Shown: positions 11,476-32,659, numbered from the stretch's first letter. The stretch is DNA of 64,000 bases from an uncultured virus (IMG/VR IMGVR_UViG_2061766007_000665) (IMGVR_UViG_2061766007_000665), one strand, 5' to 3'. The notes: generated by a model not told the origin, from the letters alone. Numbers and translations: made by a program.

Positions 11476-11510
11476 AAACGCTTGACTTTAGCTTTTCTTT
11501 ATGTTATACT
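11476..11510 (+). promoter_or_regulatory. Sigma-A-type promoter, TTGACTTTAGC class
   Basis: TTGACT 11482, 17-bp spacer, TGT-TATACT 11505. Confidence 0.85.
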
Positions 11511-11535
11511 AACAACATAAGTGAGGTAATTATTT

Positions 11536-12550
11536 ATGGCAAAATTGTATATGCTTATTGGACTTCCGGGTTCGGGTAAAACAAGCTGGGCGAATGATCA
11601 TGCTGATGCGTATAATGCAAAGGTCATGTCTTCTGATGCATTTAGACGCCTTGTTTGTGGCAGTGAAGAAGACCAAACCCGCAATAATGAGGNNNNNNNN
11701 NNNNNNNNNNNNNNGCGTAGCAACGCTTTTGGAGAATGGTAGAGATGTTATTTATGATGCCACAAATCTAACCAGAAAAAATCGTGAGCGGACTATGAAG
11801 TATATCAATTATAAAGTAAAAAACGTTGAATATACTGCGCTTATCTTTACTACTCCAATTGAAATTTGTAAGGTAAATAATCAAAAACGCACACGTCAAG
11901 TCCCGGGAAAGGTTTACGATCGTATGCTTAGGCAATTTGAAATGCCTTTATATAGCGAAGGATTTGAGCATATACACACTATTGACATATTTACCAGTCT
12001 TTTGAATCCGTATTCATATATAGCTAAAGCATATGATTTTAGTCAGGATCATCCGCGCCATGCAGAAGATTTGTATACGCATTCTATACTTGCGTTATCG
12101 TCTATGACAGAAAATGAACAAGAAATTTATCCGAATCTTTTATGCGCAGCTTTTCTTCATGATATTGGTAAATTATACACTAAGACAATAGACAAAGATG
12201 GGGTTGCTCATTATATCGGGCATGAAAATTATGGGGCATATTTGGCTTTATCTATTGATTATAAGACGGTAAAGAAAATGATATCTTCTATGCTTGAAGA
12301 TGAGGGTGATGTTAGCACATTAAATTCATCAGATATTAATCCGATTGAGGTTGCTACAATTATTAATTGTCATATGATGCCTATCAATTTACAGCAGGGA
12401 TCTATGGAAACCTGTAACAAGAAAAGCGTCCTATTGCAAAATCATTATATGCAGCATAAACGTATTAATGGAGATACTGAGAGATTGTGGGATTCTGTCA
12501 TGACGCTTCATAGATGTGACCTGATGGCATCTCGTCCGGTGAGTAAATAA
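11536..12550 (+). CDS. Polynucleotide kinase (AAA_33) fused to HD phosphohydrolase (ORFs joined across gap)
   Basis: GLPGSGKT, SSD..R, YDATNL..KNR, H..DLYTH, LHDIGK, GHENYGA. Confidence 0.85.
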
Positions 12551-12561
12551 AGGAGAAAGTA

Positions 12562-13257
12562 ATGGGTTTTGATGCTTGGATTAATGTGTATCCTCGTTAT
12601 AAAAATTATACTATAGAAGACATAGAGACTGTTGAAAAGTATTTTAATTATGAAAAAAGCGAGGGACTTCAAAAGGCTTACACTTTAGAACAATATCTTG
12701 AAGGGAAAACCGTAGATAAAGATGCGGTTGAGTTTTACCGGAATTTCTTGCACAACGAGTCAGAATTTCTGCGCAATGTAATTTATAAAGAAAAAGCCAG
12801 TTGGTGTTCTAATGGCACGCGCCTGTATCATATTATTGAAAATTATAAATATGGAGACAGTGCGCGTGATACTCCTACAGAATTTGAACTTACCAAAGAC
12901 GATTTAATTCATATAATCAACAAATGCGTTAAAAATTTTAAGGACATTAGTGTTCCAAAAGATTGCTATATAAACAATGCTTTTAGAGATGTTCAGCAGT
13001 GTGATTACTATGATGGCGAATCNNNNNNNNNNNNNNTAATGTATCCTTGCGACGGTGTTGTTCTGACAGACAGAGATGGAAACGAACACACAAAATATAC
13101 GTCTGAATGTGCGTATGATGGAGAATTTTGGCTTACTGTAATGTCTTCTGATGAAGATGATTACATAAATTATATGGGCTACCTTGTAGCTCTTGTAGAG
13201 TGTCTTACTACGGTAGATTTTGAAAAAGAAATGGTAGTGTATGGAGGTGGATGGTAA
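12562..13257 (+). CDS. Hypothetical phage protein
   Basis: AAGGAG RBS, 231-aa ORF. Confidence 0.7.
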   Translation: MGFDAWINVYPRYKNYTIEDIETVEKYFNYEKSEGLQKAYTLEQYLEGKTVDKDAVEFYRNFLHNESEFLRNVIYKEKASWCSNGTRLYHIIENYKYGDSARDTPTEFELTKDDLIHIINKCVKNFKDISVPKDCYINNAFRDVQQCDYYDGEXXXXXXMYPCDGVVLTDRDGNEHTKYTSECAYDGEFWLTVMSSDEDDYINYMGYLVALVECLTTVDFEKEMVVYGGGW

Positions 13258-13431
13258 TGTCTAAAGTTAGCTATACAGAATGCGATGTATGCGGTAAGCC
13301 AATAAATTCAATGCACGGAAAATTTGTTATTAAAAATGAAGCTGGCAGAAATGGATTTGAATTTACTCGTAAATTAGACATCTGCTCAGATTGCTGGCAT
13401 AAAATCCATAAGTATATCGAGGAAAATAAAA

Positions 13432-14595
13432 ATGTTGGTTGATGGAAAAAGAGAACTTGCATATACTGCAAAAATTACTAAAGTTGCACCGATCGAAGGC
13501 GCCGATAACATTGAACTTGTCACTATTAATGATGGATGGAAGTGCATTGCAAAGAAAACTGAATTTAATGAGGGAGATACTTGCGTATATTTTGAAATAG
13601 ACAGCAAACTCCCAGAGAAGGAATGGTCTGAGTTCCTTAGATCAAAAAAATTTAAGGTTAAGACTATGAAGCTTGGTAAATTTGGTGTGGCTTCTCAGGG
13701 GCTTGCTCTTCCTATTAATGCTTTTACAGACGATGTTATACCAACCGATATTGGGATTCCTCTTACGACAAAACTTGGGGTTACTTATGGAGTAGAAGAA
13801 GATAACGACAGAAAGGCATCTAGTTCCGATCTTAAATATAAGTCTATGGCAAGTAGACATCCAAACCTTGCAAAGACTTGGTGGTGGAGAAAGATTTGGA
13901 AAATGCCGCATGGTAAGCAAATCTTATTTTTGCTCTTTGGTAAAAAGAAAGATAAGCCGCTCGCTTTCCCCGCTTTTGTTAAAAAAACTGACGAAGAGCG
14001 TATTGAAAACGAACCTTGGCGCATTGGTGATAAAAAGATTTACCTTGCTACTGAAAAGCTTGATGGTACCTCTACAACTTTTGCTCTTAAGAAAATTAAG
14101 CGTAATAAATATGAATTCTTTGTATGTTCTCGTAATGTTCGTCAGATGACACCGGAACAGAACTGCGCTCATGACCACAATATTTACTGGGATATGGCAA
14201 TTAAGTATGATATCGAGAACGTATTAAGAACGCTGCTTATTAATTATAATCTTGATTGGATTTGTCTCCAGGGTGAGTCTGTTGGAAGTGTGCAGGGTAA
14301 TCCTCTTAAGCTTGATCACGATGATTTCTATGGATTCAATTTAATTTTTTCCGATCGTGGAAGACTCCCCTCTGATATTTCAGCAGATTACATGAAGGAT
14401 TACGGAATTAAGTGGGTTCCCATTCTTGGTGAAATGACAATTCCCAATACAATGGAAGAAGCAAAAAAGCAGGCTTATGGCAAGTCTATTGTAAACCCTG
14501 CTGTACTCCGCGAAGGAATTGTATATCGTAGCCTTGATGGTCAGGATAGCTTTAAAAACGTGTCTGTTGAGTACCTTTTGAAACATAACGGATAA
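13432..14595 (+). CDS. ATP-dependent RNA ligase (Rnl2/DRB0094-like, N-terminal OB domain)
   Basis: PIEGADNIE, YFEIDS, SQGL, KTDEERI, TEKLDGTS, QGE, REGIV, SFKNVS..YL. Confidence 0.9.
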   Translation: MLVDGKRELAYTAKITKVAPIEGADNIELVTINDGWKCIAKKTEFNEGDTCVYFEIDSKLPEKEWSEFLRSKKFKVKTMKLGKFGVASQGLALPINAFTDDVIPTDIGIPLTTKLGVTYGVEEDNDRKASSSDLKYKSMASRHPNLAKTWWWRKIWKMPHGKQILFLLFGKKKDKPLAFPAFVKKTDEERIENEPWRIGDKKIYLATEKLDGTSTTFALKKIKRNKYEFFVCSRNVRQMTPEQNCAHDHNIYWDMAIKYDIENVLRTLLINYNLDWICLQGESVGSVQGNPLKLDHDDFYGFNLIFSDRGRLPSDISADYMKDYGIKWVPILGEMTIPNTMEEAKKQAYGKSIVNPAVLREGIVYRSLDGQDSFKNVSVEYLLKHNG

Positions 14596-14676: not shown

Positions 14677-15359
14677 ATGAGAAAAATTTGCGCGTCCCTT
14701 TTAATCGCTGCTATGATTGGAACTTCATTTATATATGNNNNNNNNNNNNNNNNNNNNNNNNNNNNNNNNNNNNNNNNNGTAAAACTGAAGACGTTGAAGC
14801 CGAGCGAGAAGCGTTTAGAGCCAATGCTGTATCTACGTATATCAGTATTGGCGCTAAACAGGCTTATGAAGCAACTAAGGCGCAATATGAAAAAAAGCTT
14901 CAAGAACAGAAAGCTGTTTACGAAAGAGAAATAGAACAATGTCAATATATGATTACCAATCTTGAGATTGTTCTTTCTCACGAATATGAAAATTACGCTT
15001 GGTGGTTTTATGAAATGTCTGCAGATCAAGTTGAAGAATTCTGCAGGGTGGTCCAGGCCGAAGGAATGAGCTATCGTAACCAAATCGCTATTACCCAAAC
15101 AGCAATTAATCTTGCTATCGCCTATGGGGGCACCCCATACTATTGGATGTGTCAATCTGGGGCATATACAACTCCTACTGAACATAAACTATTACAATCC
15201 ACTATTGATAATGTCATGGCAGTCTTTCTTGATGGAGCAAGAGTAACTAGTAGACCTATCAAGTATTTCTACTCTTATACCATGATGCCAGAAGGTTCCA
15301 GGTGGCATCAACAACAGACATATGTAATGACTATTGATGATCACCATTTCTATGAGTGA
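14677..15359 (+). CDS. Secreted/membrane-anchored SleB-like cell-wall hydrolase (ORFs joined across gap)
   Basis: N-terminal signal-like segment, coiled coil, RVVQAEG, Q.GAY, YFY, IDDHHFY. Confidence 0.6.
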
Positions 15360-15817
15360 GGTGTTGACAAATGAGCAAGACGAAGCGAAGAATCCAGCGG
15401 CGATATGCAAGTATGTTCAGTTGTTGCGGTGAGCGGATGCTTGAAAAAGAGGGATATCGGACGGAAACAGATCGTTTATTTGTTTGTCAGCGATGCGGGA
15501 AAAGTAAGTGGATAAGATATGCGCCGAAGGAGGAAGAAGAATGAGCGTTTTAATCAAGGGAATGGATATGCCTTGTGGCGAAGAAGCACTCACAATCCGA
15601 ATATATCCAAATGGAACGGTAACATCGTACCCGTGCATGGGTTTTGTAAAAATAGCAGATGCGGTCGAAGTGCCGAAACACGGGCGGCTTATCGATGCTG
15701 ACAAAGCAGCAGAAGCAATGTTGTTTGAAATGTGCGGAACTGGCTATCAGTCGAGGGCTATGGACATTTTACAATACGACTTTTATACGCCGACAGTAAT
15801 TGAAAGCGAGGAATAAA

Positions 15818-16168
15818 ATGGGAGTTTATATTGAGGATATGGATATACCGAAATCCTGTGCGGAGTGTCGACTTGTAGGAGCAGATGGGGATATATTGTT
15901 CTGTCGATCCGTCGGTTATGTCAGCGAAATGGTACATAAACGGCATGAAAACTGCCCGCTCTCTGAAGAAAGAGCCGCAGATGCAATCGAAAAACTTATG
16001 CCAAAAACGGCACGGTGGGAAGATACTTACAAAGACGGTGATTGGCATTGCTCAAATTGCGGCGCGATTGTAGAAAAAGACGAGCAAATAAATCATAACT
16101 GGTATTGCTGCTATCATTGTGGCGCAAAGATGGAAAACCCATTTATGGATACAGATGAACATTCGTGA
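15818..16168 (+). CDS. Zn-ribbon hypothetical protein
   Basis: PKSCAEC, HCSNCG, CYHCGAKM. Confidence 0.6.
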   Translation: MGVYIEDMDIPKSCAECRLVGADGDILFCRSVGYVSEMVHKRHENCPLSEERAADAIEKLMPKTARWEDTYKDGDWHCSNCGAIVEKDEQINHNWYCCYHCGAKMENPFMDTDEHS

Positions 16169-17246
16169 ATTAAAAATTTGGCTAAAAGAACAAATCAAAG
16201 AANNNNNNNNNNNNNNNNNNNNNNNNNNNNNNNNNNNNNNNNNNNCTCAAAGCACGGACAAAGAGTTGCTTATGAGAGGGTGCTTAAACTGATAGAATAA
16301 AAGTTAATGACTATGATTAATGAAACAGAAAAATTAATTGGCAAAACAATTAGCAAAATTGAAATTGATGGGTATGGTGTCTATATTAAGTTTACAGACG
16401 ATACTGAGCTTGAATATAGTGCTAGTGATGGTGGTTATTCTTCTTGGGGAATAATTGAATAAAAAGGCTAGATCATCGTTTTTATGAATAATTATGATTA
16501 GAGTAAATTGCTGTGATAATTGTATACATTATACTTGGTACACAGATTATTGTGATCAATGGAAGTGCACGGTTGATGGGGCATATTGCTGTCACATGTT
16601 TAAGATTTGGCCTAGTTTAAAGTATAAAGGAGCAAGGGGCAATGGTGGAATACAACCTGAGAAAAAACATTAGAGCTTATCAATGGGGTGTGGATCCTAC
16701 GATGACCATACTTGAGAATTGCGGTAGATATATTAGAAATGCCCATCTTCGAAAGCGCGGCAAAGATGGCCAATTAAAGCATCTTATGGCCATGACTTGC
16801 ACGACATGCAAGGGTAGATGGCTTACTCTTGAAGATAAAGACTGGATTATTGTTGAGGACATTGGCGGTAACGATACTTGGGAAGTGACTGATGTTCTTG
16901 GTGATGAAGAATTCCAGTGGCGCTATAAAAGGGTTTAATTAGCAGCTTATGAAAAGAGGTTTTGATATGAGAGATATTGCTCGTATTGATAAGTTTTGCG
17001 ATCAGCTTAAAGAAGAGTGGAAGAAGTACCCAGATTATCGTTTTGGCCAAATGATTATGAATGTATTTGGCGAAATGGCTAAAAGTGGCAAAGATCCCTT
17101 CTTCCCGGAAGACGAAGAAATGATGAAGGCCATTAAAGCGCACCTTAACAAAATTGCTTTATATAGATGATAACGCATTAGCGATATCATATATTAAAGG
17201 GAGTACCTTTGCGGCGGCTCAGGTTTNNNNNNNNNNNNNNNNNNNN

Positions 17247-17322
17247 NNNNNNNNNNNNNNNNNNNNNNNNNGACGGCCTTATAAGCCGTGCGTACCTGGT
17301 TCAACTCCAGGGAGGAGGACCA
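17247..17322 (+). tRNA. tRNA-Ile(UAU), 5' part in gap (start estimated)
   Basis: acggc-ctTATaa-gccgt anticodon arm, cctgg-ttcaact-ccagg T arm, 3' ACCA. Confidence 0.85.
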
Positions 17323-17358
17323 TTAAAAAATATCACATTTTTTGAAAAATTTTTTTGA

Positions 17359-17393
17359 AAACGCTTGACTTTAGCTTTAAAATGTGATATAGT
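17359..17393 (+). promoter_or_regulatory. Promoter driving the ncRNA/tRNA island, TTGACTTTAGC class
   Basis: TTGACT 17365, 17 bp, TGA-TATAGT 17388. Confidence 0.85.
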
Positions 17394-17427
17394 ATATTTG
17401 TAAGTGAGAGAGATCCACTTACAGAAC

Positions 17428-17988
17428 CTTGAAAAAAGCATANNNNNNNNNNNNNCCGAGAAGCTACTGAATAATGAGGCCGTGATCCAGGGATACCTGA
17501 GGAGCGAGCCTTCGGAATATCAGCGATGGTATAATGGAAGAGGGAGCATAAACCTCAACGTTAAGGTGGCTGTGCTGAGATATATGGTGTATAAGATACG
17601 GTGTGCGCGGTTGCAAAAATAGANNNNNNNNNNNNNNNNNNNNNNNNNNNNNNNNNNNNCTAACGGGAGTTAGTAAGTAAATCTGGTAATCCAAACTAAT
17701 GCGATCCGTCATGAGAGCCTTCGAAAGAGGGCTATAACGCGACAGCCGGTAAAAGTAGCCAAACGACGGTGGAAGAAAATGAATTCTATGATGGAGAATT
17801 AACTACACTGAATGTCTGGTGAAATTTGCAGGTATCAGACCTGTCTGTGCATGGGCCGTAGGCGAGGCAATAAGTTAGGGGTCGCTCCCCAAAGCTCAGT
17901 ATTGCTTCCACAGTGATCGAATATACAGTAATATAGGTAGGTAAGGCGAAGGCCTAAGATGTGTTATAGACAATGTGCTTTTTTCAAG
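17428..17988 (+). ncRNA. ROOL-like large ornate ncRNA (~560 nt)
   Basis: Perfect 13-bp terminal pairing cttgaaaaaagca/tgcttttttcaag; ordered motifs gggatac, tccaaac, cggtaaaagtagc, ctgaatgt..gtgaaa, ggggtcgctcccc..gctcag, gtgatcgaata, gcctaa recalled from ROOL; tRNA-cluster context. Confidence 0.75.
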
Positions 17989-18004
17989 CGAACTTTGACA
18001 ACAT

Positions 18005-18131
18005 GAAGAAGTGGCGGAATGGTGTAGACGCTTACGCGAATAAGATTGCCTCTGGCTCTTAGCCAGGTTTGGCGGCACATCTACTGTATGTGTGAAGTGC
18101 AATCATGTTTGGTTCAAATCCTAACCTTCTC
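18005..18131 (+). ncRNA. tRNA-mimic RNA with branched insert instead of anticodon arm
   Basis: D-arm gtggcggaatggtgtagacgc, T-loop ggttcaaatcc, agaag/cttct acceptor, gattgc/gcaatc stem enclosing two hairpins, no CCA. Confidence 0.55.
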
Positions 18132-18142
18132 TAATATTATAT

Positions 18143-18229
18143 CCGGATGTGGCGGAATCGGCAGACGCAGCGGACTTAAAATCCGCCGGTGTTATAACCA
18201 TGCCAGTTCAAGTCTGGCCATCCGGACCA
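18143..18229 (+). tRNA. tRNA-Leu(UAA)
   Basis: ccggatg/catccgg acceptor, gcgga-ctTAAaa-tccgc, long V arm, ACCA. Confidence 0.95.
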
Positions 18230-18400
18230 TAATTGAGAAGAGACCTCAATTTATTGTATACAATAAAGAATGTCTCCATGAGATGCGAAACTCCAGAAAG
18301 TTCTCTTGTACGGGACCGTACGAAAAAGCCGTTACTAGTAAACCGAAGAACGTAAAATACGGTGCATGTTGGTAATCGTACGAGGATTGACCAACAACTT

Positions 18401-18908
18401 GTCAACATAGTGTAATGGATAGCACGCTTACTGGTTTCGACTGGTAGGAAGTATAGGTTCAAATCCTATTATTGGCTTATTGGAAGGTAATCTTCCCTGT
18501 CCGTGCTATATTTCACTCCTTTATAAGTGGACGGCAGTAACATTAAAGAGAGTCGTGGATCAGTGAGCACGTAACAAAAACTGTGAGTTAGTGGTGATTG
18601 GACAAGTATAAATCCCACCAGCAAGACCCACGCTGCGAGAGGGGTTGCTACCATACAAGGGCAACAACGCCTATGGTGAGCAAAGTATGGCGAAATGAAC
18701 CACCGTCAAAGGTTTCTAGGTAGCTGCAGTATATCCTAGTTTTAGTTATTGGACAGACTGGCATTAACCGGGATGCGTGGAAAACCTACCGTGAATAGTG
18801 AAATAATCTATTTGGGATTAAGTAGGAGATATGGGTAGATATATTCCGATAACTAAAATCCAGATCCTCATGTTTAGCAATTTCATCGAGAGGGAAAAGA
18901 AATTGCTT
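18401..18908 (+). ncRNA. GOLLD-like large ncRNA (compact, ~500 nt) with 5' tRNA-like domain
   Basis: tRNA-like 18401-18476 with UUCG-capped extended stem; motifs aaatcc..gcaagacc..gcgag and gactggcattaaccggg recalled from GOLLD; 14-bp stem 18740-18753/18845-18858. Confidence 0.6.
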
Positions 18909-18911
18909 TAT

Positions 18912-18986
18912 GCTGGCATGGCTCAACGGTAGAGCAGCTGATTTGTAATCAGCAGGTTGGGGGTTCGATTCCCTCTGCCAGCTCCA
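18912..18986 (+). tRNA. tRNA-Thr(UGU)
   Basis: gctga-ttTGTaa-tcagc, full cloverleaf, CCA. Confidence 0.95.
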
Positions 18987-18989
18987 TTG

Positions 18990-19057
18990 ACCGACTACGC
19001 GGTGTCATCGGTCCTCCTTTCTTCGTAACGGTCCTGGGCATGACTAAAAACTGCCCA
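18990..19057 (+). ncRNA. Small structured RNA with H-type pseudoknot (skipping-rope-like, tentative)
   Basis: cctcctttc tract then ggtc/gact and gggca/tgccc pseudoknot stems. Confidence 0.45.
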
Positions 19058-19077
19058 ACTGCTTTAAGGAGAATATT

Positions 19078-19266
19078 ATGGCTGGTTACAATGTGTCGAG
19101 CAAAAACTTNNNNNNNNNNNNNNNNNNNNNNNNNNNNNNNNNNNNNNNTCATAGTATTTTTAAAGATGTAGAAACAGGAAGATTAGCCGTTATTCCTCAT
19201 AAGCTTAATCCAATTATTGCAGAGAGAATTATTAAAGATTTTAAATTAAACACCAATATTAAATAA
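19078..19266 (+). CDS. HicA-like small protein (partly in gap)
   Basis: AAGGAG RBS; HSIFK...G..AVIPH.L....ERIIK pattern and ~62-aa size typical of HicA. Confidence 0.55.
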   Translation: MAGYNVSSKNXXXXXXXXXXXXXXHSIFKDVETGRLAVIPHKLNPIIAERIIKDFKLNTNIK

Positions 19267-19267
19267 T

Positions 19268-19343
19268 GGGGTATTAGCTCAGCTGGGAGAGCGCCTGCCT
19301 TGCACGCAGGAGGTCAGCAGTTCGATCCTGCTATGCTCCACCA
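19268..19343 (+). tRNA. tRNA-Ala(UGC)
   Basis: cctgc-ctTGCac-gcagg, G3-U70, ACCA. Confidence 0.95.
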
Positions 19344-19705
19344 AAACGCGGTATCATCACGCGGTTAAGCCGTTCCTGGGCGCTAAGCATTGGTCAGGCT
19401 GATGCAGGCGAATATGGTTCGAATCCATAAGGGTCCAGTAGAAGATGCGGGCGATGACGGAGCCATTACATGACAACGACATATGGTAAATGGTGCCACC
19501 CCACCAATGGACGCGTTGGTTCATATGTCCGATCGTGGCTGAGTCTTTTCCACCACCTGGTACTGAATGCTGTTATTGGGACATTATCGGGGACTCCTTT
19601 GAGAACAATCTGCTTGTAATGTCTAACAAATAGTAAGTGGACTTGAAAAAGCCGGGGAACAGTAAGCGATACGTTTACCAGAGAAGAATTCAGGCTTCTC
19701 ATTAT

Positions 19706-19805
19706 ATCACTCTTGTGGCGGNNNNNNNNNNNNNNNNNNNNNNNNCGCGCATGTCGTAGAAGTAAGACAACTACATGTGGGGTGTAAATCCTCACCAAGA
19801 GTGAT
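19706..19805 (+). ncRNA. Second tRNA-mimic RNA, related to 18005-18131
   Basis: 10-bp atcactcttg/caagagtgat, gtggcgg D-arm start, gtgggg-tgtaaat-cctcac T-like arm. Confidence 0.5.
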
Positions 19806-19814
19806 TTCAATTAT

Positions 19815-19891
19815 GTGCCGATGATGGAACAGGCATACGTATTCGACTCAAAATCGAAGTTCTGTGGGTTCGACTCCCACTCGGCGCACCA
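19815..19891 (+). tRNA. tRNA-Leu(CAA), short variable loop
   Basis: ttcga-ctCAAaa-tcgaa, 77 nt, ACCA. Confidence 0.9.
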
Positions 19892-19959
19892 ATCCCCTCC
19901 GGGTTTGTGGACTGACGGTGAAAGCTCAATCTTTGCGGAGATATGAGAAAGGGAATTTT

Positions 19960-20045
19960 GGAGGGTTACTCTAATTGGTAAGAGGCCGGTCTTGAAAACC
20001 GGTGTAGCGAAAGCGATCAGGGTTCGAGTCCCTGGCCCTCCGCCA
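19960..20045 (+). tRNA. tRNA-Ser(UGA)
   Basis: ccggt-ctTGAaa-accgg, V arm, GCCA. Confidence 0.95.
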
Positions 20046-20225
20046 AATGCCCCATCCAAATATCGAAGCTAGATTCTTAACAGCCCTCTTCGAGGCATGG
20101 GGAAGCAATGCAGGTGCCACGAACCTGTTCTAACTGAGCGTGACTTGGACAAAACGCGGCTTTAGAGCAGTATGACGTAACGGTCGGCAGTGGTAAATGG
20201 AGTTCGATGAACAGCCTGCATTATT

Positions 20226-20313
20226 GGGGAGATAAGCCTAATGGTAAGGCACTCGCTTGGAAAGCGAGGAGTAACTGGGTGACCAGCGTGTGGGTTCAAG
20301 TCCCGCTCTCCCC
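20226..20313 (+). tRNA. tRNA-Ser(GGA), 3' NCCA in gap
   Basis: ctcgc-ttGGAaa-gcgag, long V arm, ggggaga/tctcccc. Confidence 0.9.
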
Positions 20314-20649
20314 NNNNNNNNNNNNNNATTAAAGGAGAAAATAATGGTAGAATCTATTTCTGTTACAGAAAAAGGGAAAGAGGCAGAATTTGCCCCAAAA
20401 TATGATAAGGATATTGGACTTTTAATTCCGCAAGTTTTTTATACTGATAAAGATTGTACAGTTGATTATCTAATAATAAGCAACAACATACTTTCTGATA
20501 TGTTTAACCAGCTTTTTCTTGATAAAACAATTGACGATTTAAAATGATATGATCTCTTCAAAAAAATCGAAAATTGGCCCAAATAACCCCCTAAAAGTCT
20601 ATATAAAAGTGTGATTTTATTTTTAAATTTTTTTATTATTTTTTCCTCA

Positions 20650-20684
20650 AAACACTTGACTTTAGCTTTTGTTTGTGATATACT
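20650..20684 (+). promoter_or_regulatory. Sigma-A-type promoter, TTGACTTTAGC class
   Basis: TTGACT 20656, TGA-TATACT 20679, followed by gtaagttaaa. Confidence 0.85.
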
Positions 20685-20703
20685 TATCATGTAAGTTAAA
20701 GAT

Positions 20704-20793
20704 GGAGGGTTGGAGTAATGGTATCTCAGCGGATTGCTAATCCGTCCTACCCCTCATAAGGTAGTGTGGGTTCGAGTCCCGCACCCTCCGCCA
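20704..20793 (+). tRNA. tRNA-Ser(GCU)
   Basis: gcgga-ttGCTaa-tccgt, V arm, GCCA. Confidence 0.95.
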
Positions 20794-21398
20794 TATAGGA
20801 GAAAGAAATGAGAGGAATCATAGAAGCCGCAATTATGCTAGAGGGCGATAGAATCGTAGCTGGCAAGAGACATCATCAGATTATCGCCAAGCTTGCAGAA
20901 ACCGGCCATACATCCGAATATAAAAAGTGGCACGAAGATGGTTTTATTGTTGTAACAGATAATTATAATCTTAATTTCTGGACAAGAGAAGCATGTACAG
21001 AATGGGCTAAAGAGCACAATATCCCAATGGCCGGTTCCGTACTTACGTCAGAAGATGTAATACCGGCCGATGAAGATCTACCCGTTTATATGTTCTTTGG
21101 CAAACTAGAAGGAATTAATTGATATGCTTTGTAATATTTGTGTGACTTCAAAAGAGCTTTGCGACTCCTGTAAACACAATCCTAAATATAGGAACTTGAA
21201 GGACTATTTCATTGACTATGAACTCACTTGTCCTTATAGACTTACATGGTGTGTGTCTGACCCAGGGTATATAAAAGCTCATTATTTAGATTGGTATAAA
21301 AGCATGTTTGGAGACAAGCTTCCAGCAGATGTTGTAAAAGAATCTTGTGAGAACTGTGTACGTGGCAGTCTTTATGATGATGAGGATAAATAATAATT

Positions 21399-22114
21399 AT
21401 GTATAAAGGACTTTATAATACATTTAAACATTGGTATGATGGTGGCCAGGTCTATTTCTATGCTGATCCGCATTTTGGTGACGAAGACATGAAATATATT
21501 CGCAAGAATTATATTGGAGACGAAGAACAGATTAAGCATATCAATTCTAAAGTTGGTAAAAAAGATACACTTGTAATTCTTGGTGATATTGGCGATATTA
21601 AATGCGTCCAGAAGCTTAAGGGCCGTAAGATTTTGATCTGCGGAAATCATGATATGGGGGCCACTAAATATCAGCGCCATATGGAGTTCTATTTCTATGA
21701 TGACAAAGATAGGGCTATGGAAGCCTTAAAGAATCGTAAGATTTGTCAGTTTAGAGAAGATGGATATAATTATACCACTCAGTGTCATGAATACATTGGC
21801 TGGTCTNNNNNNNNNNNNNNNNNNNNNNNNNNNNNNTTTCAGAAAATATTATTCTTTCTCATGAACAGGTTAATTTCCCGTACGCTCTTAATATTCATGG
21901 GCACGATCATAGTTATTGGGCAAAAGATGATGAGCTTCATTTAAATGTATGCGCCGAACATATTAACTATACTCCGGTATCTTTAAAAGAAATTATTGAG
22001 TCTGGTAAGCTTAAAAACATTCCTAATATACATAGACAAACGATTGATAGGGCCACAGATCGTAGAAAACTTGCAAAAGGTATTTTAAAGGAGCTTGAAA
22101 ATGGGAAAGCTTGA
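21399..22114 (+). CDS. Calcineurin-like phosphoesterase (frame offset by gap)
   Basis: ADPHFG, LGDIG, GNHD, then LSHE and IHGHDH after gap. Confidence 0.85.
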
Positions 22115-22336
22115 TAAGATTTATATTGATGATGAACTCCCAGAACCTGATGAAACCATGATGTGCACGCACTATATTGTTAGAAACCAAGGTTTGCGCA
22201 GCACGTGGGAGGTGTGCAAAGACGATTGTGGGCATCTTTATTGGGTTCAAGTTAGTCGTCCCGTTCCAGACACCATGTATGTTTGGAGATATTGACTTGA
22301 TAAGGAAGTTAATAATTAGGCTTTTATAAGCCTTTT

Positions 22337-22412
22337 CGGGGTGTAGCGCAGTTGGTAGCGCGCCTGCTTTGGGAGCAGGATGTCGTGCGTTCGAGTCGCA
22401 CCACTCCGACCA
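22337..22412 (+). tRNA. tRNA-Pro(UGG)
   Basis: cctgc-ttTGGga-gcagg, ACCA. Confidence 0.95.
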
Positions 22413-22973
22413 TAAGGAGAAATAAAAATGGATAGGATCTACACAATTACAGCATGTACAAAACTTGAATCTGACGAAAAGGGTTGGCCGTATTTTGGCA
22501 GTATGCGAGTGCTTGGTTGGTACGAAGAATTTAGTGACGCCGATGAAGCTCTTCGTGAAAACGTATTAGACATTTATGAGTATACTTATAATTATGCGGT
22601 AATTGAATGGGTAGAACCGGGACTATACCCAAACATTATAGATCGTCAATTTTATCAGTGGGATCCTGTTAAAAAAGGATACCGTCCTATTACAGAACCA
22701 AAGTTTATGAAACATTTTTGCAATATTAGTATGGGGTAAAAACAATGGACATTAGCATTATTAAATGGAATAAGGAAACCACTCCTCCTGATGGAGATGA
22801 AGTTCTTGTGCATATGAGAGACGATCATGGCGATAGCCTTAATTGGTATACTACTACAGCAGTACATTTCGGAGATATTTGGGTTAAAGACAATGATTAT
22901 CTTTGCGGAACTGTAATGATGTGGGCTGAGATCCCCCAGGATATAATTTCAATTCATGATTAATTTTTTTCAA

Positions 22974-23008
22974 AAACGCTTGACTTTAGCTTTAATTTGT
23001 GGTAATAT
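22974..23008 (+). promoter_or_regulatory. Sigma-A-type promoter, TTGACTTTAGC class
   Basis: TTGACT 22980, TGG-TAATAT 23003, gtaagttaaa downstream. Confidence 0.8.
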
Positions 23009-23039
23009 ATAATCGTAAGTTAAAGCTATGTCAATTTAT

Positions 23040-23114
23040 AGCGGAGTGATGCAATGGTAGCAATTCAGGCTCATAACCTGAAAGTTGCGGGTTCGAATCC
23101 CGTCTCCGCAACCA
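23040..23114 (+). tRNA. tRNA-Met(CAU), initiator-like
   Basis: tcagg-ctCATaa-cctga; unpaired A1:A72; ACCA. Confidence 0.9.
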
Positions 23115-23365
23115 AAAGTCAGTGTGAGGGTTAGAATTGTGGCTGGAAGCGGGGCAGAAATAGTAAGTGGAATGACACTCCTGAGACAATCTGGGTTTTT
23201 GGGGCAACGGCGAAAGCTGGACCTACTCGGAACGTAACTATTATAGCTGTGTAACATTGATTTATTACCTTGGCGATAAGGGCGCCGCCTATAGGTGGCA
23301 AAAATCGTTCCAGCAATGCAGATGTACTGCAGGCGGTTGACGGTGACCGAGTGGAACCGTAATTT

Positions 23366-23444
23366 GGGCGAATAGGCGAATTGGCATAGCCACTTGCCTT
23401 AGGNNNNNNNNNNNNNNNNNNNNNNNNNNCCACTTTGCCCACCA
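23366..23444 (+). tRNA. tRNA-Leu(UAG), partly in gap
   Basis: gggcgaa/tttgccc acceptor, cttgc-ctTAG, ACCA. Confidence 0.8.
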
Positions 23445-23630
23445 GAGAGGACGGCTGGTCCTTGTCAAAACCTGATCATATATTGTTAAAATTATTAAAA
23501 CCGGCGGCTATTATAGAAGCCGTCATATATGTAAATTATTTAATCGATCAGGACAGCTAAACCCCAGAACCAAAGATCTAGTTCTGAGCATGAAAGGTGC
23601 GTGGCTACCGGGAAGAGAACGGTTTTTAAT

Positions 23631-23705
23631 GCCTCAATAGCTCAATGGTGGAGCAGGCGGCTGTTAACCGCAAGGCTGTAGGTTCGAACCCTACTTGAGG
23701 CGCCA
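23631..23705 (+). tRNA. tRNA-Asn(GUU)
   Basis: gcgg-ctGTTaa-ccgc, GCCA. Confidence 0.95.
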
Positions 23706-24076
23706 TTTTAAAACAAGGAGACTATAATGAATTTAAAAGACGAAACTATTAAAGTGTTGCGGTACTACGGTAAAACGGTTGATGAAATTAACTGGATCGG
23801 TTGTAGAGATTTTACAATACCTTGTGACTTATTTTGGCAACTTGCTGATAAAGAATATGATAGTGGATTTGGCGCACAAGAAGTAGCATCAGATTTAATT
23901 ATAGTTGGAAACAACTGGTGGCTTGAGCGATATGAATACGATGGGTCTGAGCATTGGGAATATAAACAGTTTCCAATAAAGCCAAATAAAACCAGGGTAG
24001 TTGACAGAGTTATGTTAGGTAAGCATGGCTGGAGTTCGTTGTACGATCTTAATAAAGAAGACTAAGACAAAGAAAA

Positions 24077-24519
24077 ATGAAAAACTCTTATATTGATCAA
24101 TTTAAAGGTAAATACGAATTTTTAAGTAATTTTTACCCGGTTAAAGTAAACTACATGGGACTTACGTTTGACAATAGCGAAGCAGCATATCAGGCTGCAA
24201 AATGTCCTGAACGCGCACAAGAGTTTATTGGAATTACACCCGCTTATGCTAAATCGCTTGGTAAAAGAGTTCCGCTTCGTGATAATTGNNNNNNNNNNNN
24301 NNNNNNNNNNNNNNNNNNNNNNNNNNNCAAAACCCCGATCTTAAATTAAGACTAATTGCAACCGGAGATAGCGAGCTTATTGAAGGTAATTTTCATGGAG
24401 ACCGCTACTGGGGTGTCTATAATGGAGTCGGAGACAACCATCTTGGAAAAACGCTAATGGCTCTTCGTGAAGTATACTGTAATGAAATTTTGGAGCAAGA
24501 CGAGGTTTCCGGGCAATGA
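24077..24519 (+). CDS. NADAR (YbiA/DUF1768) family protein (ORFs joined across gap)
   Basis: FLSNFY, SEAAYQAAK, AKSLGK, QNPDLK..LIATG..ELIEGN..DRYWG, G.NHLGK.LM.LR. Confidence 0.88.
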
Positions 24520-24882
24520 ATTTTCAAAAGCTAGTAGACAAATATGGTAACGACAAACAATTTTGGGAAGAAGCAAAAAGAGGTATTAACATGGATCCTA
24601 AAGAAGAAACTGTAGAAACCAAGATTTATCCGGTTCAAGATTATTTGGTTATTTATGATGACGATTTTAGATGTATGTATCACGACGTTACCTGTTTGAA
24701 GGAGCTTATTGGGCACGTAATTGAAGACAATAGGCCGGCTAGTTTTGCAGTCCTTACCAAAGCAATTCATGGGTTTGATGATAATGATCCAGATCTGGTC
24801 GAATTTTATAACAGTTCTTGCCCCATTTCAAGAATAGCTCATATTTNNNNNNNNNNNNNNNNNNNNNNNNNNNNNNNNNNNT

Positions 24883-24958
24883 GCGGTCGTAGCTCAATTG
24901 GTAGAGTGCCAGCCTTCCAAGCTGGATGCTGAGGGTTCGAAGCCCTTCGGCCGCTCCA
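24883..24958 (+). tRNA. tRNA-Gly(UCC)
   Basis: ccagc-ctTCCaa-gctgg, TCCA. Confidence 0.95.
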
Positions 24959-25112
24959 GATTCTGCGCAAAATCATTAAGGCTTAATACTAGTTAACACC
25001 CTTAATGATTGGCACAGATAATTTAAAAACACTTTTCACGTTTTTATTTATGATTAAAGCAAAGAAAACATCGAAAGTCACAAAATAACCACATCAAACA
25101 CGTAAATAATTT

Positions 25113-25187
25113 GCGCTCATAGCTCAACGGATAGAGCCACGGTCTTCTAAACCGTTAATGAAGGTTCGATTCCTTCTGGGCGTACCA
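25113..25187 (+). tRNA. tRNA-Arg(UCU)
   Basis: acggt-ctTCTaa-accgt, ACCA. Confidence 0.95.
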
Positions 25188-25817
25188 AAGGAGTGAAATA
25201 TGGTAGAATTAATTGTATGGCTTTTCTTCGCATCTGTGTTAGCATATTTGGTAACTGATGCATTGGATATTTTCCTTGAAACAGACCATAAAATTCTTAA
25301 AGGACTGACATTTGCGTTTACAGCTCTTACTTTTTTGTCATTGATCGGAATGTTTCTTATTGGATAATTGAATATTATGAAGTCTAAAAAAATCGATCTA
25401 AACTCCAAACTCACTAAATGGGAACCGTATCAATACAAACTTGATTTTATTACTAGTAATTCTGGAATTAGCGTAATAGATACTTCTTGTATGACGGTGT
25501 CAGAAATTAAGCAAGAGCTTAAAGAATTTGGGGCATCAACTGTTGTAAATAATGTTAAAACAGGAGTTTTATATGCTGTAAGAAAATTAAACTGGTGCGG
25601 GAAAGACGAAAAGACAAATGAACTAGGATATAGTATATCTATNNNNNNNNNNNNNNGATTAATTGGGTACAAAATTTCGCATGTTGGCTTTGTAAAACAC
25701 GACGATTTTTATAAAGTTTTTAATGATGCTCAAAGGTTTATTGTTTTAAAAGACAATGATGGGCTTTTTAAAGATCTCCGTTATGGCAAAAAATATGTTT
25801 AACAATGGATTAGAAGG

Positions 25818-26159
25818 ATGGAATTTATAATGAATAAAGAAGTAAAGCATTATCCCGGCAAAGATAGCACAGGAAAGCCTCAGGTTTCTCTTGTACCTAC
25901 TCAAATTATTTGGGATATTACTCAGGTTCGAGAATATGGCAATAACAAATATCATGAGCCCGATAACTGGAAGGTTGTCGACCCTCAGAAATTTATAGAC
26001 GCTATGCTTAGACACACGCTTAAATTCTGGGAAGACCCCCATGCTATTGATCCAGAAAGCGGACTTCCTCATTATAAGCATATAGCGTGTAATCTTGCAT
26101 TCATTTGTGATATGTTCGCAAAACAAGAGAAAGAAAAGCGGGAGAAAGACAATGGCTAA
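25818..26159 (+). CDS. dATP/dGTP diphosphohydrolase-like (DUF5664) protein
   Basis: GKPQVSLVP, YGNNKY..DNW, AMLRH, DPESGLPH..HIACNLAF. Confidence 0.8.
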   Translation: MEFIMNKEVKHYPGKDSTGKPQVSLVPTQIIWDITQVREYGNNKYHEPDNWKVVDPQKFIDAMLRHTLKFWEDPHAIDPESGLPHYKHIACNLAFICDMFAKQEKEKREKDNG

Positions 26160-26457
26160 ATATCGTAAAAAGCCCGTTGTAATTGAAGCAATCCAGTGGA
26201 CAGGGTTTAATCAAGACGAAATTAGAAAATACTTTGGTACAACGTTTGAAGAGAGATCCGAGGTTCGTGGTAATTATGAATACGATGAAGAGAACCTAAA
26301 GTTTTATCTTAAAAGCTATATTCTTACAATTAAGACTCTTGAAGGTAATATGATGGCAAGCAAAGGCGATTATATTATTCGCGGAATTGATGGAGAATAT
26401 TATCCCTGCAAACCCAAAATCTTTGAAAAGACATACGAATATGTATCGGAAAATTAA
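26152..26457 (+). CDS. Conserved small phage protein (PGDYG-like)
   Basis: YRKKPVVIEAIQW...TLEG...GDYII.G..GEYYPCKP.IF.KTYE. Confidence 0.7.
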   Translation: MAKYRKKPVVIEAIQWTGFNQDEIRKYFGTTFEERSEVRGNYEYDEENLKFYLKSYILTIKTLEGNMMASKGDYIIRGIDGEYYPCKPKIFEKTYEYVSEN

Positions 26458-26796
26458 CACTTATAAAGGATTAATTCAAAAAAATGAGTAGAAGAGCGTG
26501 GGCAACTAACGAAANNNNNNNNNNNNNNNNNNNNNNNNNNNGATCCGGTTGGTGATTCTTCAATAGACCCGACAATAGAGGACAATCTTAAAACCCTTAT
26601 AGATATAACTAACTGGTGCATGGACGGGCTATATAGTGCAGCCAGATTTAGAAAGAGTCATTATCGCAGTATGGCAGATATAGGAGAACGCGCATACGCG
26701 TCTCTTCTTGAATATAAAGATTGGATTAATGGAGTAGAAAACGAATTAAAATAAAGCANNNNNNNNNNNNNNNNNNNNNNNNNNNNNNNNNNNNNN

Positions 26797-26823
26797 GACT
26801 TTAGCTTTTATTTGTGATATATT
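26797..26823 (+). promoter_or_regulatory. Sigma-A-type promoter, TTGACTTTAGC class (-35 partly in gap)
   Basis: GACTTTAGCTTT..TGA-TATATT, gtaagtt downstream. Confidence 0.75.
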
Positions 26824-26842
26824 ATATATGTAAGTTGAATTT

Positions 26843-26906
26843 AGGGCCGTAGCCAAGCGGTAAGGCATGGGACTTTGACTCCCACATTCGCTGGTTCGAA
26901 CCCAGC
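26843..26906 (+). tRNA. tRNA-Gln(UUG), 3' end in gap
   Basis: gccaagcggtaaggc D arm, tggga-ctTTGac-tccca, gctgg-ttcgaac-ccagc. Confidence 0.9.
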
Positions 26907-28279
26907 NNNNNNNNNNNNNNNNNNNNNNNNNNNNNNNNNNNNNNNNNNNNNNNNNNNNNNNNNNNNNNNNNNNNNNNNNNNNNNNNNNNNNNNNNNNNNN
27001 NNNNNNNNNNNNNNNGATCTGGATTTATTGCTGGAGTATTGTCAAAATTTTATACCGATGAAGCAAAGGTTAGAGAGCTGATTAATCACGGTTCTGCAGA
27101 TTATGTTTATCCAGGCAGATATTTTGGTGCTGCAAATGATGGCTTTGAGCCCGAAGTGATGCATTTCGACTCACCCGATGATCTGTATGTAGCAATTGAT
27201 CCAATACGTATGGCGTCAGAAGGCGACTATCCGGAAGAAGATTTGATTTTTCTGACAACGCATATATTTATTTTTGATAATTATGGCGTAGTAGAAGATG
27301 ATAAGCCTGGATGGTCTTGTTGGTATGATCAATCTGGACACGATATTAACTGGGCATATCATGATAATGGCGAATATTCTGCGTCCGAATTAATTGAAGA
27401 AGAAAACGAAGCGATGAAATACTACAAAGAAAAAGGACTGGCACAGTATCTTTAAAGGGGAATTAAATGCAATCGGAATATGAGCGCGGAATCCTTTTAT
27501 ATGCTAACGCAGGGAAAGGCTATAAAGTATCATTCATAACTAGCGATACCTTAATGCACGCAGCCGCTATCATTCGATGGTTTTATGAAGACGATGAAAA
27601 AGCTAAAAATTTGATAGATCGCGGAACATATGTTAGACTTGATTGCAATGATTCGCAAATGACGACATGTCCATCATTCTTTAGTACCGATATTCCGGAA
27701 AGATATGCATGGCTTCCAAGGTTGTATTACAGAACCGAGGTCCAAAAATGGTATGTTTGTACATGCGGTAATAGAGCTGGCATATTTGAAGAAACCGAGC
27801 TTAGAAAATGGATAGAAGAGCGTTTTCCGGAATATAATGAGCCGAGCTGTCTTTCTACATTAATAGATCGAGACATGCAACACAAAAAAACCAAAAACAA
27901 ATTTGAACAGTGGAAAAAAGAGAAAAACAAACTTTTTGAAAACGATGATGCAAGATAGGAGAAGAGTATGAAAGAAATTATTATTCTGGCACTGTCTATT
28001 ATTATTCCGGTACTTATTGTAATAATTGGTTTTCTGTGGATTCATAAAGATGATTATCCAAGCAAAGCCATTAAGAACCTTGACAAATACATTATGGACT
28101 CCCTTATTGAGGAGCGCGATGCTCTTATGATTCGTTATAAAGATCTTAAAGTTAAAAAAGACGTTGTTGCTCCGGAATATTTCGATGTTGTTTATAGAGA
28201 ATATAAGAATGTAGAAGAACGTTTAGAAATTAATCGTGCTAGAATAATGGCTGAAAAGAAGAAAATGGCGGAGGCATAG

Positions 28280-32624: not shown

Positions 32625-32659
32625 AAACGCTTGACTTTAGCTCAGATTTGTGGTATAGT
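32625..32659 (+). promoter_or_regulatory. Sigma-A-type promoter, TTGACTTTAGC class
   Basis: TTGACT 32631, TGG-TATAGT 32654. Confidence 0.85.

Follow-up and report, generated by a model that had tools for sequence, protein, structure and literature searches.

Does a stretch of phage DNA that is led by a promoter, studded with transfer RNA (tRNA) genes and nearly devoid of protein-coding sequence hold an RNA-based system of a new kind? The stretch in question occupies positions 17400-20313 of the window, a 64,000-nucleotide (nt) DNA from an uncultured virus (IMG/VR IMGVR_UViG_2061766007_000665), and the initial annotation had read it as an operon of two giant RNAs, ROOL and GOLLD, in tandem with tRNAs and tRNA mimics. 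The window is phage DNA, near-identical DNA is present in cattle-gut metagenome runs, and the locus is probably the RNA-gene operon of a large cattle-rumen phage, in which ROOL and tRNAs are expressed from one promoter. A phage tRNA island with ROOL is an already known kind of locus; what is new is a candidate small RNA family, represented by a 116-nt element that is called S7 RNA here. The claim that made the locus look exceptional, namely a second giant RNA and with it a new RNA-based system, does not hold. The model as a whole, an operon of ROOL, tRNAs and S7 RNA that are co-transcribed and released by tRNA processing, with no GOLLD, is given a probability of roughly 0.68.

The interval of about 2.9 kb is indeed nearly all non-coding, as had been claimed; only one small open reading frame (ORF) in it is preceded by a ribosome-binding site (AAGGAG, 6 nt upstream of its ATG), and approximately 1.7 kb of the unit falls outside tRNAs and ORFs. 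Four mechanical ORFs that overlap the spacers, three of which also overlap tRNA genes, contain no Pfam family, and tblastn with 20,403 six-frame ORFs of related loci gives chance-level matches to the spacers (E-values 0.001-0.01). The interval is moderately GC-richer than its AT-rich promoter and ORF parts (GC content 0.41-0.53 over most of 17400-20313 vs 0.29-0.37), but the upstream coding DNA at 15200-17000 likewise has a GC content of 0.40-0.45. Runs of N mask 17227-17271, 17443-17455, 17624-17659, 19110-19148, 19722-19745 and 20315-20327, and this masking depresses the ROOL score and conceals portions of two tRNA-like elements. Labels of the form L### denote comparison loci from related or ROOL-bearing records. 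The features of the unit are as follows.

17365-17393, plus strand: sigma-70-type promoter, TTGACT-17-TATAGT with an extended -10 TG (sequence match)
17400-17422, plus strand: 7-bp hairpin, GTAAGTG 17400-17406 with CACTTAC 17416-17422 (read from the sequence)
17413-17988, plus strand: ROOL RNA, Rfam match 17413-17975, closing helix extending to 17988 (RF03087 covariance model)
18005-18132, plus strand: S1, putative degenerate, expanded class-II tRNA-like element, 128 nt (reading, repeats D5/D6)
18143-18229, plus strand: tRNA-Leu(TAA) (ARAGORN, Rfam)
18230-18400, plus strand: spacer S2, 171 nt, four hairpins, unexplained (fold z-score -1.55, no homologue, no Rfam match)
18401-18477, plus strand: aberrant tRNA with a 6-nt anticodon loop, TTTCGA (ARAGORN "tRNA-???", Rfam tRNA 43 bits)
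18478-18911, plus strand: spacer S3, 434 nt, unexplained (no homologue, no Rfam match)
18912-18986, plus strand: tRNA-Thr(TGT) (ARAGORN, Rfam)
19078-19266, plus strand: 62-codon ORF with ribosome-binding site, partly masked, no family (ORF search)
19268-19343, plus strand: tRNA-Ala(TGC) (ARAGORN, Rfam)
19344-19705, plus strand: spacer S5, a tRNA remnant followed by about 260 nt unexplained, 19437-19705 (no homologue, no Rfam match)
19368-19436, plus strand: tRNA remnant in S5 with a perfect T arm, TATGG-TTCGAAT-CCATA (reading)
19706-19805, plus strand: S5b, class-II tRNA-like, 10-bp acceptor-type helix 19706-19715/19796-19805 and long variable hairpin (reading)
19815-19891, plus strand: tRNA-Leu(CAA) (ARAGORN, Rfam)
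19960-20045, plus strand: tRNA-Ser(TGA) (ARAGORN, Rfam)
20107-20222, plus strand: S7 RNA, conserved structured RNA of an uncatalogued family (covariance model, covariation)
20225-20315, plus strand: tRNA-Ser(GGA), 3' end entering an N mask (ARAGORN, Rfam)
20344-20547, plus strand: 67-codon ORF closing the unit, no family (ORF search)
20656-20684, plus strand: next copy of the same promoter, 13-nt leader, then tRNA-Ser(GCT) at 20704 (motif match)

ROOL RNA and its promoter

The unit is headed by a true ROOL RNA. The RF03087 covariance model matches over its full length (model positions 1-574 of 574, E-value 1e-47) and scores 216.9 bits against a gathering score of 99.1, despite 49 masked nt, which bears out the ROOL-like RNA of the initial annotation. 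The Rfam model aligned the closing stem poorly; a closing helix of 13 bp with 100% complementarity is formed by 17428-17440 and 17976-17988, so that the RNA ends at 17988 rather than at 17975. Equivalent closing helices elsewhere span 8-29 bp, have unrelated sequences and reach at least 12 bp in 49 of 62 distinct flank pairs, while that of the window resembles those of L128, L116 and L152. Using the window ROOL as query, nhmmer matches 93 of 95 IMG/VR ROOL loci and 36 of 40 loci from bacterial genomes and metagenome-assembled genomes. The RNA sits among phage genes with 13 tRNAs downstream on the same strand. Metatranscriptome contigs cover 17456-17589 with one difference and 17595-17957 with none, and they denote presence in an RNA library, where DNA is possible, and are silent on starts, ends, strand and level.

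ROOL is an RNA of about 580 nt that assembles into RNA-only cages. To our knowledge, nobody knows its purpose or the origin of its ends. In a full-length model match, a long closing helix, a phage setting, same-strand tRNA genes and the suggested co-transcription with tRNAs, the window ROOL is like those already known. It scores lower than 27 other phage ROOLs (216.9 vs 288-406 bits), in part because of its 49 masked nt. It also differs in position, coming first after the promoter instead of directly between two tRNAs, and a degenerate tRNA-like element takes the place of a true tRNA behind it. The setting itself is not of an undescribed kind: passages of Weinberg et al. (2017; PMC5737381) place ROOL beside phage tRNA islands and already propose co-transcription with tRNAs, and parts of Kretsch et al. 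(2025; PMC12286853) likewise describe ROOL near phage tRNA islands with possible co-transcription.

Within one ROOL subfamily (L117, L148, L136 and L154) a tRNA-Thr is followed by ROOL, then by a small ORF or directly by tRNA-Ala, and slightly further on by a transfer-messenger RNA (tmRNA), and this gene order therefore puts ROOL and tmRNA in one island. At 2653-2733 of L174, about 50 nt past ROOL, stands an 81-nt tmRNA-like RNA that consists of the tRNA-like domain alone (Rfam tmRNA, 58.9 bits).

The promoter claimed at 17365-17393 is confirmed and is one of seven window copies of a 27-nt motif, TTGACTTTAGCTTT-N4-TGTGATATA, counted at up to 3 mismatches where 0 are expected from 100 shuffles. 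Five copies precede the kinase gene (11482), ROOL (17365), tRNA-Ser(GCT) (20656), tRNA-Met (22980) and a masked tRNA (26795), and the remaining two are found at 32631 and 55818; at four of them a structured RNA starts 12-28 nt past the predicted transcription start. Outside the window the motif occurs at one IMG/VR place and five metagenome places, every one of them unrelated. Judged from promoter spacing, transcription would start near 17400, and the hairpin at 17400-17422 would then form the 5' end of the transcript. Terminator prediction gives none for the plus strand from 17400 to 20656. The placement of the promoter copies therefore suggests a unit that spans about 17400 to 20656, along which ROOL, the tRNAs and S7 RNA would be co-transcribed, and the description as a single-promoter unit stands, with one strong promoter, one strand and no predicted plus-strand terminator before the next promoter.

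A conserved 116-nucleotide RNA beside tRNA-Ser(GGA)

BLAST of the spacers against five whole relatives gave short matches to 20187-20225, and these revealed the S7 family, which has seven copies in five phage records, two relatives carrying two copies each. Helix P1 (20107-20114/20215-20222) is stacked directly on P2 (20115-20120/20190-20195), within which lies a variable hairpin domain that ranges from 8 to about 105 nt across the copies, while a nearly invariant 19-nt strand (20196-20214, AAATGGA...AACAG) leads back into P1. P2 pairs TGCYAC with GTRGTA and has the variants CCAC/GTGG, CTAC/GTAG and CCTC/GAGG. The signature strands GGTGCYAC-GAAG on the 5' side and GTAAATGGA...AACAGCC on the 3' side are both borne by the window copy. 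In the seven copies 92.6% of cells pair, compared with 75.2% in shuffles, and 8 of 14 pairs show compensating changes, in a structure that was itself derived from six of the tested sequences; neither value is reached by any of 500 shuffles, and slid partner columns are 22-51% paired. The element at 20107-20222 thus appears to be a conserved folded RNA and a candidate for a new small RNA family.

A covariance model (R1) built from six copies scores the window copy at 93.1 bits and the untrained seventh copy at 55.7 bits (E-value 1e-11), the latter in the L116 phage, which is also one whose ROOL closing helix resembles that of the window. The model finds nothing else convincing in 1.9 Mb of loci; weak matches in L014, L063 and L296 were dropped as they lack the signature. 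A regular expression for the signature, run over 2.66 Mb, returns only the same six full-length copies and misses the minimal L059 copy. At E-values up to 10, Rfam 15 assigns five of the copies to no family, and a word search of the published literature, in which papers are not searchable by sequence and which is hence weak, gave nothing relevant. The element is always on the tRNA strand. In four of the seven copies a tRNA or tRNA-like gene begins 1-5 nt past it; in the window 2 nt separate the end of P1 (20222) from the start of tRNA-Ser(GGA) (20225), and in L274 the element exactly fills the gap between two tRNAs.

S7 RNA is comparable to drum (RF02958), skipping-rope (RF02924) and phage tmRNA in being a short folded RNA among phage tRNA genes with an unknown or accessory role. 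Among the comparison loci, tRNAs have drum and skipping-rope as neighbours in L003 and L184, and tmRNA in L067, L148, L154, L117 and L136. S7 RNA matches none of the three, and its architecture of two stacked helices with a conserved 19-nt 3' strand is distinct. The RNA species I and II of phage T4 are likewise short RNAs encoded among tRNA genes, and are presumably processed together with the tRNAs. Both are named in the legend to a map of the T4 tRNA region (PMC2330249). S7 RNA may add a family to the few RNAs that are maintained in the tRNA islands of large phages. It is doubtful that it represents the first member of a new class of phage RNA with a part in tRNA biogenesis or defence; were it so, it could generate tRNA 5' ends as a leader that cleaves itself or guides RNase P, or could serve as a decoy against host nucleases directed at phage tRNAs, and ROOL, S7 RNA and S1 would be deliberately punctuated by tRNA-shaped signals which turn one transcript into a set of working RNAs.

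Proposed release from a common precursor and competing readings

The initial annotation had also proposed release of the RNAs by tRNA processing, and this fits the manner in which ROOL and S7 RNA abut tRNA genes in other phages. The comparison comprised 71 distinct ROOL sequences from 93 loci with flanks of 2.5-4 kb, the ROOL ends being extrapolated to about 20 nt. The flanks of 67 of the 71 contain tRNAs, and none of 321 tRNAs lies on the strand opposite ROOL. Within 45 nt of ROOL, 40 sequences have a tRNA upstream and 29 have one downstream; 23 have both, and 46 have at least one. This pattern of strand and spacing fits excision of ROOL by tRNA-processing enzymes, and the strand bias together with the proximity of a tRNA in 46 of 71 makes that idea directly testable, for which the present locus offers a simple case: one promoter, ROOL first, and a tRNA-like element that begins 16 nt past the closing helix.

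This element, S1, looks like a decayed relative of expanded class-II tRNAs of 135-150 nt that occupy the same slot, 11 nt past ROOL, in L128/L166, L152 and L116/L178. These are Leu-TAA or Tyr-GTA tRNAs with an encoded CCA and with an insertion of 49-64 nt immediately 5' to the anticodon loop, and the one in L128 (2608-2746) scores 33.3 bits with Rfam. Their D-arm sequence occurs at 21 places, of which seven are expanded tRNAs, all directly behind a ROOL motif; the others, none with a ROOL motif upstream, include 12 normal tRNAs (79-83 nt), a 122-nt tRNA with a long variable arm in L210 and a tRNA-Leu interrupted in its anticodon loop in L216. The start of S1 resembles that of the adjoining tRNA-Leu (GAAGTGGCGGAAT vs GATGTGGCGGAAT), comprising a Leu-type acceptor and the start of a D arm, and is followed by the hairpin TCTGG-CTCTTAG-CCAGG, a long variable hairpin and a T arm with the loop TTCAAAT; the acceptor pairs at six of seven positions and there is no CCA. 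Rfam gives no tRNA match to S1 at E-values up to 10, and ARAGORN reports it only at an 80% threshold, with a 4-nt anticodon.

In the favoured model, host RNA polymerase would most likely start near 17400, at a consensus-like promoter that is repeated before several phage RNA genes, and would transcribe ROOL first, then the decayed class-II tRNA look-alike S1 and then the remaining RNA genes, in a transcript that also carries seven tRNAs, the 62-codon ORF, two further tRNA remnants and S7 RNA. Host tRNA-processing enzymes would most likely cut the non-tRNA RNAs from this precursor, with ribonuclease P (RNase P) cleaving where the following tRNA or tRNA-like element begins and 3' trimming taking place behind the preceding one. 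An RNase P cut at S1 or at tRNA-Leu would free ROOL with a short tail, and cleavage at tRNA-Ser(GGA) would free S7 RNA.

Several points weigh against this model. The use of S1 by RNase P is conjecture, because S1 fails the Rfam tRNA model even at the permissive E-value. The RNA evidence consists of assembled contigs, which are blind to ends, levels, starts and strand, and because ROOL is the only part with contigs of near identity, a short transcript of its own is an equal possibility. The S7 family rests on seven copies in five phage records, and its pair counts are inflated because the structure came from those same sequences. Its model R1 gives nothing convincing in 46/50 and 49/50 further whole viral records, nor in 36 bacterial genomes with ROOL, the one marginal match in these searches being without the signature. 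Three of the seven copies are at least 105 nt from the next tRNA or have none nearby. Lastly, fold energies set no spacer apart from shuffled sequence.

In the first alternative ROOL and the canonical tRNAs would be the only functional parts, and everything else, S7 RNA included, would be what tRNA-gene duplication and decay have left behind or a small selfish repeat that moves from one tRNA island to another. S1 has 13 nt in common with the start of tRNA-Leu and 13 identical nt in common with the T arm of the aberrant tRNA (repeats D5 and D6); T-arm-like hairpins recur in S5, none of the sets searched contains a homologue of spacers S1-S6, and two relatives hold the S7 element twice, as a mobile repeat would. 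In S7 RNA, however, the two helices are kept by compensating changes and the 19-nt strand is almost invariant while the inner domain varies, which neutral debris would not do; its constant orientation along the tRNA strand also disagrees with this reading, which is considered unlikely as a whole.

Rather less likely is that ROOL forms its own transcription unit and that the tRNAs downstream are transcribed by read-through from upstream or from weak internal promoters. What looks like a hairpin with a T-run often follows ROOL in 40 loci from bacterial genomes and metagenome-assembled genomes (judged by eye in 70-nt flanks, uncounted), the RNA-library contigs of near identity fall on ROOL, and weak promoter-like sites (9 of 12 matches) exist in the unit. 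In the window, however, the T-run behind ROOL is taken up by base-pairing within the closing helix and no terminator is predicted, while the promoter-like sites within the unit occur at shuffle frequency (35 found vs 30.1 expected) and the one at 18113-18140 would start transcription inside tRNA-Leu.

It is also improbable that S7 RNA generates the 5' end of the downstream tRNA, as a self-cleaving ribozyme or some other cis-acting leader, in which case it would be a 5'-side counterpart of the theta ribozymes at the 3' ends of gut-phage tRNAs. The position of four copies 1-5 nt before a tRNA or tRNA-like gene would suit such a role, as would a conserved core that looks single-stranded and the presence 6 kb upstream, behind the same promoter motif, of RNA ligase and polynucleotide kinase, which act on cleaved RNA ends. 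Gut phages do use small ribozymes for tRNA ends, and passages of Kienbeck et al. (2024; PMC10879173) describe theta ribozymes as minimal ribozymes like that of hepatitis delta virus (HDV), abutting gut-phage tRNA genes in genomes enriched for RNA ligase. In that description they lie 3' of tRNAs for which CCA is mostly not encoded, whereas S7 RNA lies on the 5' side and at least six of the seven tRNAs of the unit encode CCA (the 3' end of tRNA-Ser(GGA) being masked). Against a ribozyme, Rfam finds none at E-values up to 10 in the window copy or four others, three of the seven copies are not beside a tRNA, and the 3-8 nt that separate P1 from the tRNA resemble an ordinary RNase P leader. A custom-made HDV-type/theta descriptor, unvalidated on a known positive, gives 0 strict matches in the window, and its relaxed form shows no excess of the catalytic C (45 starts vs 73, 58 and 59 with A, G and U).

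The search for a second giant RNA is more clear-cut. The covariance-model scan against Rfam that had been suggested as a check recovers ROOL and the tRNAs and nothing else: at gathering score ROOL is the sole family besides tRNA in the 64 kb, and at E-values up to 10 with permissive filters 17000-27500 and 17976-20330 give, besides ROOL in the former, tRNAs and junk-level matches, with no GOLLD, RNase P RNA, tmRNA, ribozyme, drum or skipping-rope. ARAGORN in tmRNA mode finds none in the window, and no GOLLD is detected at gathering score in 34 related or ROOL-bearing loci (7 + 15 + 12). The label of a GOLLD-like RNA is therefore rejected, with no match in 10.5 kb or, at the laxest filters, in 2.4 kb, and the claim of two giant-RNA classes in tandem fails because nothing GOLLD-like is present. 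GOLLD is known from phage tRNA islands, where parts of Kretsch et al. (2025; PMC12286853) describe it as sometimes tRNA-linked; the likeness ends with that setting, as the window holds no match in sequence or structure. That ROOL, a GOLLD-like RNA and further large RNAs form one undescribed RNA-based phage system is hardly credible, since, for all that ROOL is present, about 1.7 kb lies outside tRNAs and ORFs and the two families share genomic habits according to passages of Weinberg et al. (2017; PMC5737381), its GOLLD part is already largely refuted by these searches and spacers S3 and S5 have no relatives.

tRNA genes, spacers and neighbouring genes

ARAGORN predicts 13 plus-strand tRNA genes between 18143 and 25187 and one on the minus strand; Rfam confirms these and adds a partly masked tRNA at 26850-26906. 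Both programs place seven in 17400-20313 rather than the six first counted, one of them having a 6-nt anticodon loop. The tRNA mimics are partly real, comprising S1, this 6-nt-loop tRNA and two further remnants. The tRNA at 18401-18477 has a sound cloverleaf but not the 7-nt anticodon loop, and is a minor oddity because such 6-nt loops occur in 6 of 645 tRNAs over 263 loci. Its anticodon arm (18438-18456, ACTGGTTTCGACTGGT) is identical to the 5' D-loop-analogue region of phage tmRNAs in L090, L094, L095 and L098, probably by chance. Exact 16-mers of the aberrant tRNA and of S3 occur at 15 and 10 IMG/VR places, respectively, all of them chance or tmRNA 5' ends. S5b has a non-canonical T loop (TGTAAAT) and no CCA, and it cannot be scored because a run of N masks its D and anticodon region.

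Further tRNA fragments lie close to the promoter copies. At 17272-17322, ending 43 nt before the promoter, are the 3' two-thirds of a tRNA with the anticodon arm ACGGC-CTTATAA-GCCGT (anticodon TAT), a T arm, an acceptor strand and CCA, which every tRNA tool missed because its 5' part is masked. The tRNA at 26843-26906 starts about 13 nt past the promoter copy at 26795 and is cut by an N mask, so that Rfam covers model positions 8-63 only. Among the relatives, L008 carries at 813-945 a tRNA-Leu with a hairpin of about 45 nt inside its anticodon loop, which is too short to be a group I intron, and that phage also encodes an RNA ligase; an Rfam tRNA match in L004 (737-858) is a further case.

The initial annotation had predicted several unclassified RNAs, of which one is upheld, the conserved and covarying RNA at 20107-20222, while the spacers at 18478-18911 and 19344-19814 have no relative or family. 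Searches with S1-S7 of 88 loci, 95 ROOL loci and 40 genome loci gave no credible match, apart from the weak S7 match that led to the small RNA family. Sixteen spacer pieces have no credible match in four whole relatives, the lone match of S1 (E-value 0.13) being in unrelated sequence, and S3 and S5 show chance matches of 16-29 nt in 50 whole viral records. Comparison of the spacers with one another reveals no paralogy at z>3 and merely short shared words. That the interval is highly base-paired is not demonstrable: spacer fold z-scores are -0.30, -1.55, -1.04, -1.29 and -0.68, and they say nothing either way because the genuine ROOL 3' part scores only -0.88, which leaves the test powerless. 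The long spacers other than S7 RNA are most likely fast-evolving filler and tRNA debris, and on the economical reading S2, S3 and the middle of S5 are leftovers of tRNA-gene turnover, a lineage-specific RNA being less likely.

S3 contains a 14-nt inverted repeat (18740-18753/18845-18858) and a 9-bp hairpin 5 nt before tRNA-Thr. A 266-nt RNA-library contig is about 95% identical to 18429-18557 and then continues for 130 nt unlike the window, which hints that S3 is mosaic among related phages. The same RNA-library run has no contigs on the unit beyond ROOL, the tRNAs and 18429-18557, and the uncovered part proves nothing and was not used as evidence. Further downstream, between tRNA-Met and tRNA-Asn, 23115-23630 is a 516-nt non-coding stretch with a GC content of 0.46 that shares one 14-nt word with S5; it matches no Rfam family and has no homologue in four whole relatives.

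Elsewhere in the window PHROGs annotates an exonuclease V/Dda-like helicase, an anaerobic ribonucleotide reductase (NrdD), a NAD-dependent DNA ligase and a thymidylate-synthase-like protein. Just upstream of the RNA operon, and preceded by a further copy of its promoter motif, lie genes (11482-14595) for a polynucleotide-kinase-like protein (11558-12550) and an RNA ligase (13432-14595), which together are the classic phage tRNA-repair pair. The INPHARED phage collection has 452 matching records, all in tRNA-sized pieces, and none covers 80% of the query. The closest IMG/VR relatives are 49-59% identical in the RNA ligase (65 loci) and 59-67% in a phosphoesterase (2 loci), with little synteny. 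The phosphoesterase gene (21261-22081) is apparently split, a single ORF of L066 aligning to 21261-21701 and, in another frame, to 21839-22066, which is a frameshift or an assembly error. Similarly, a single ORF in several relatives (e.g. L039) aligns to 24092-24286 and 24328-24471, which are two separate ORFs in the window (24092-24471).

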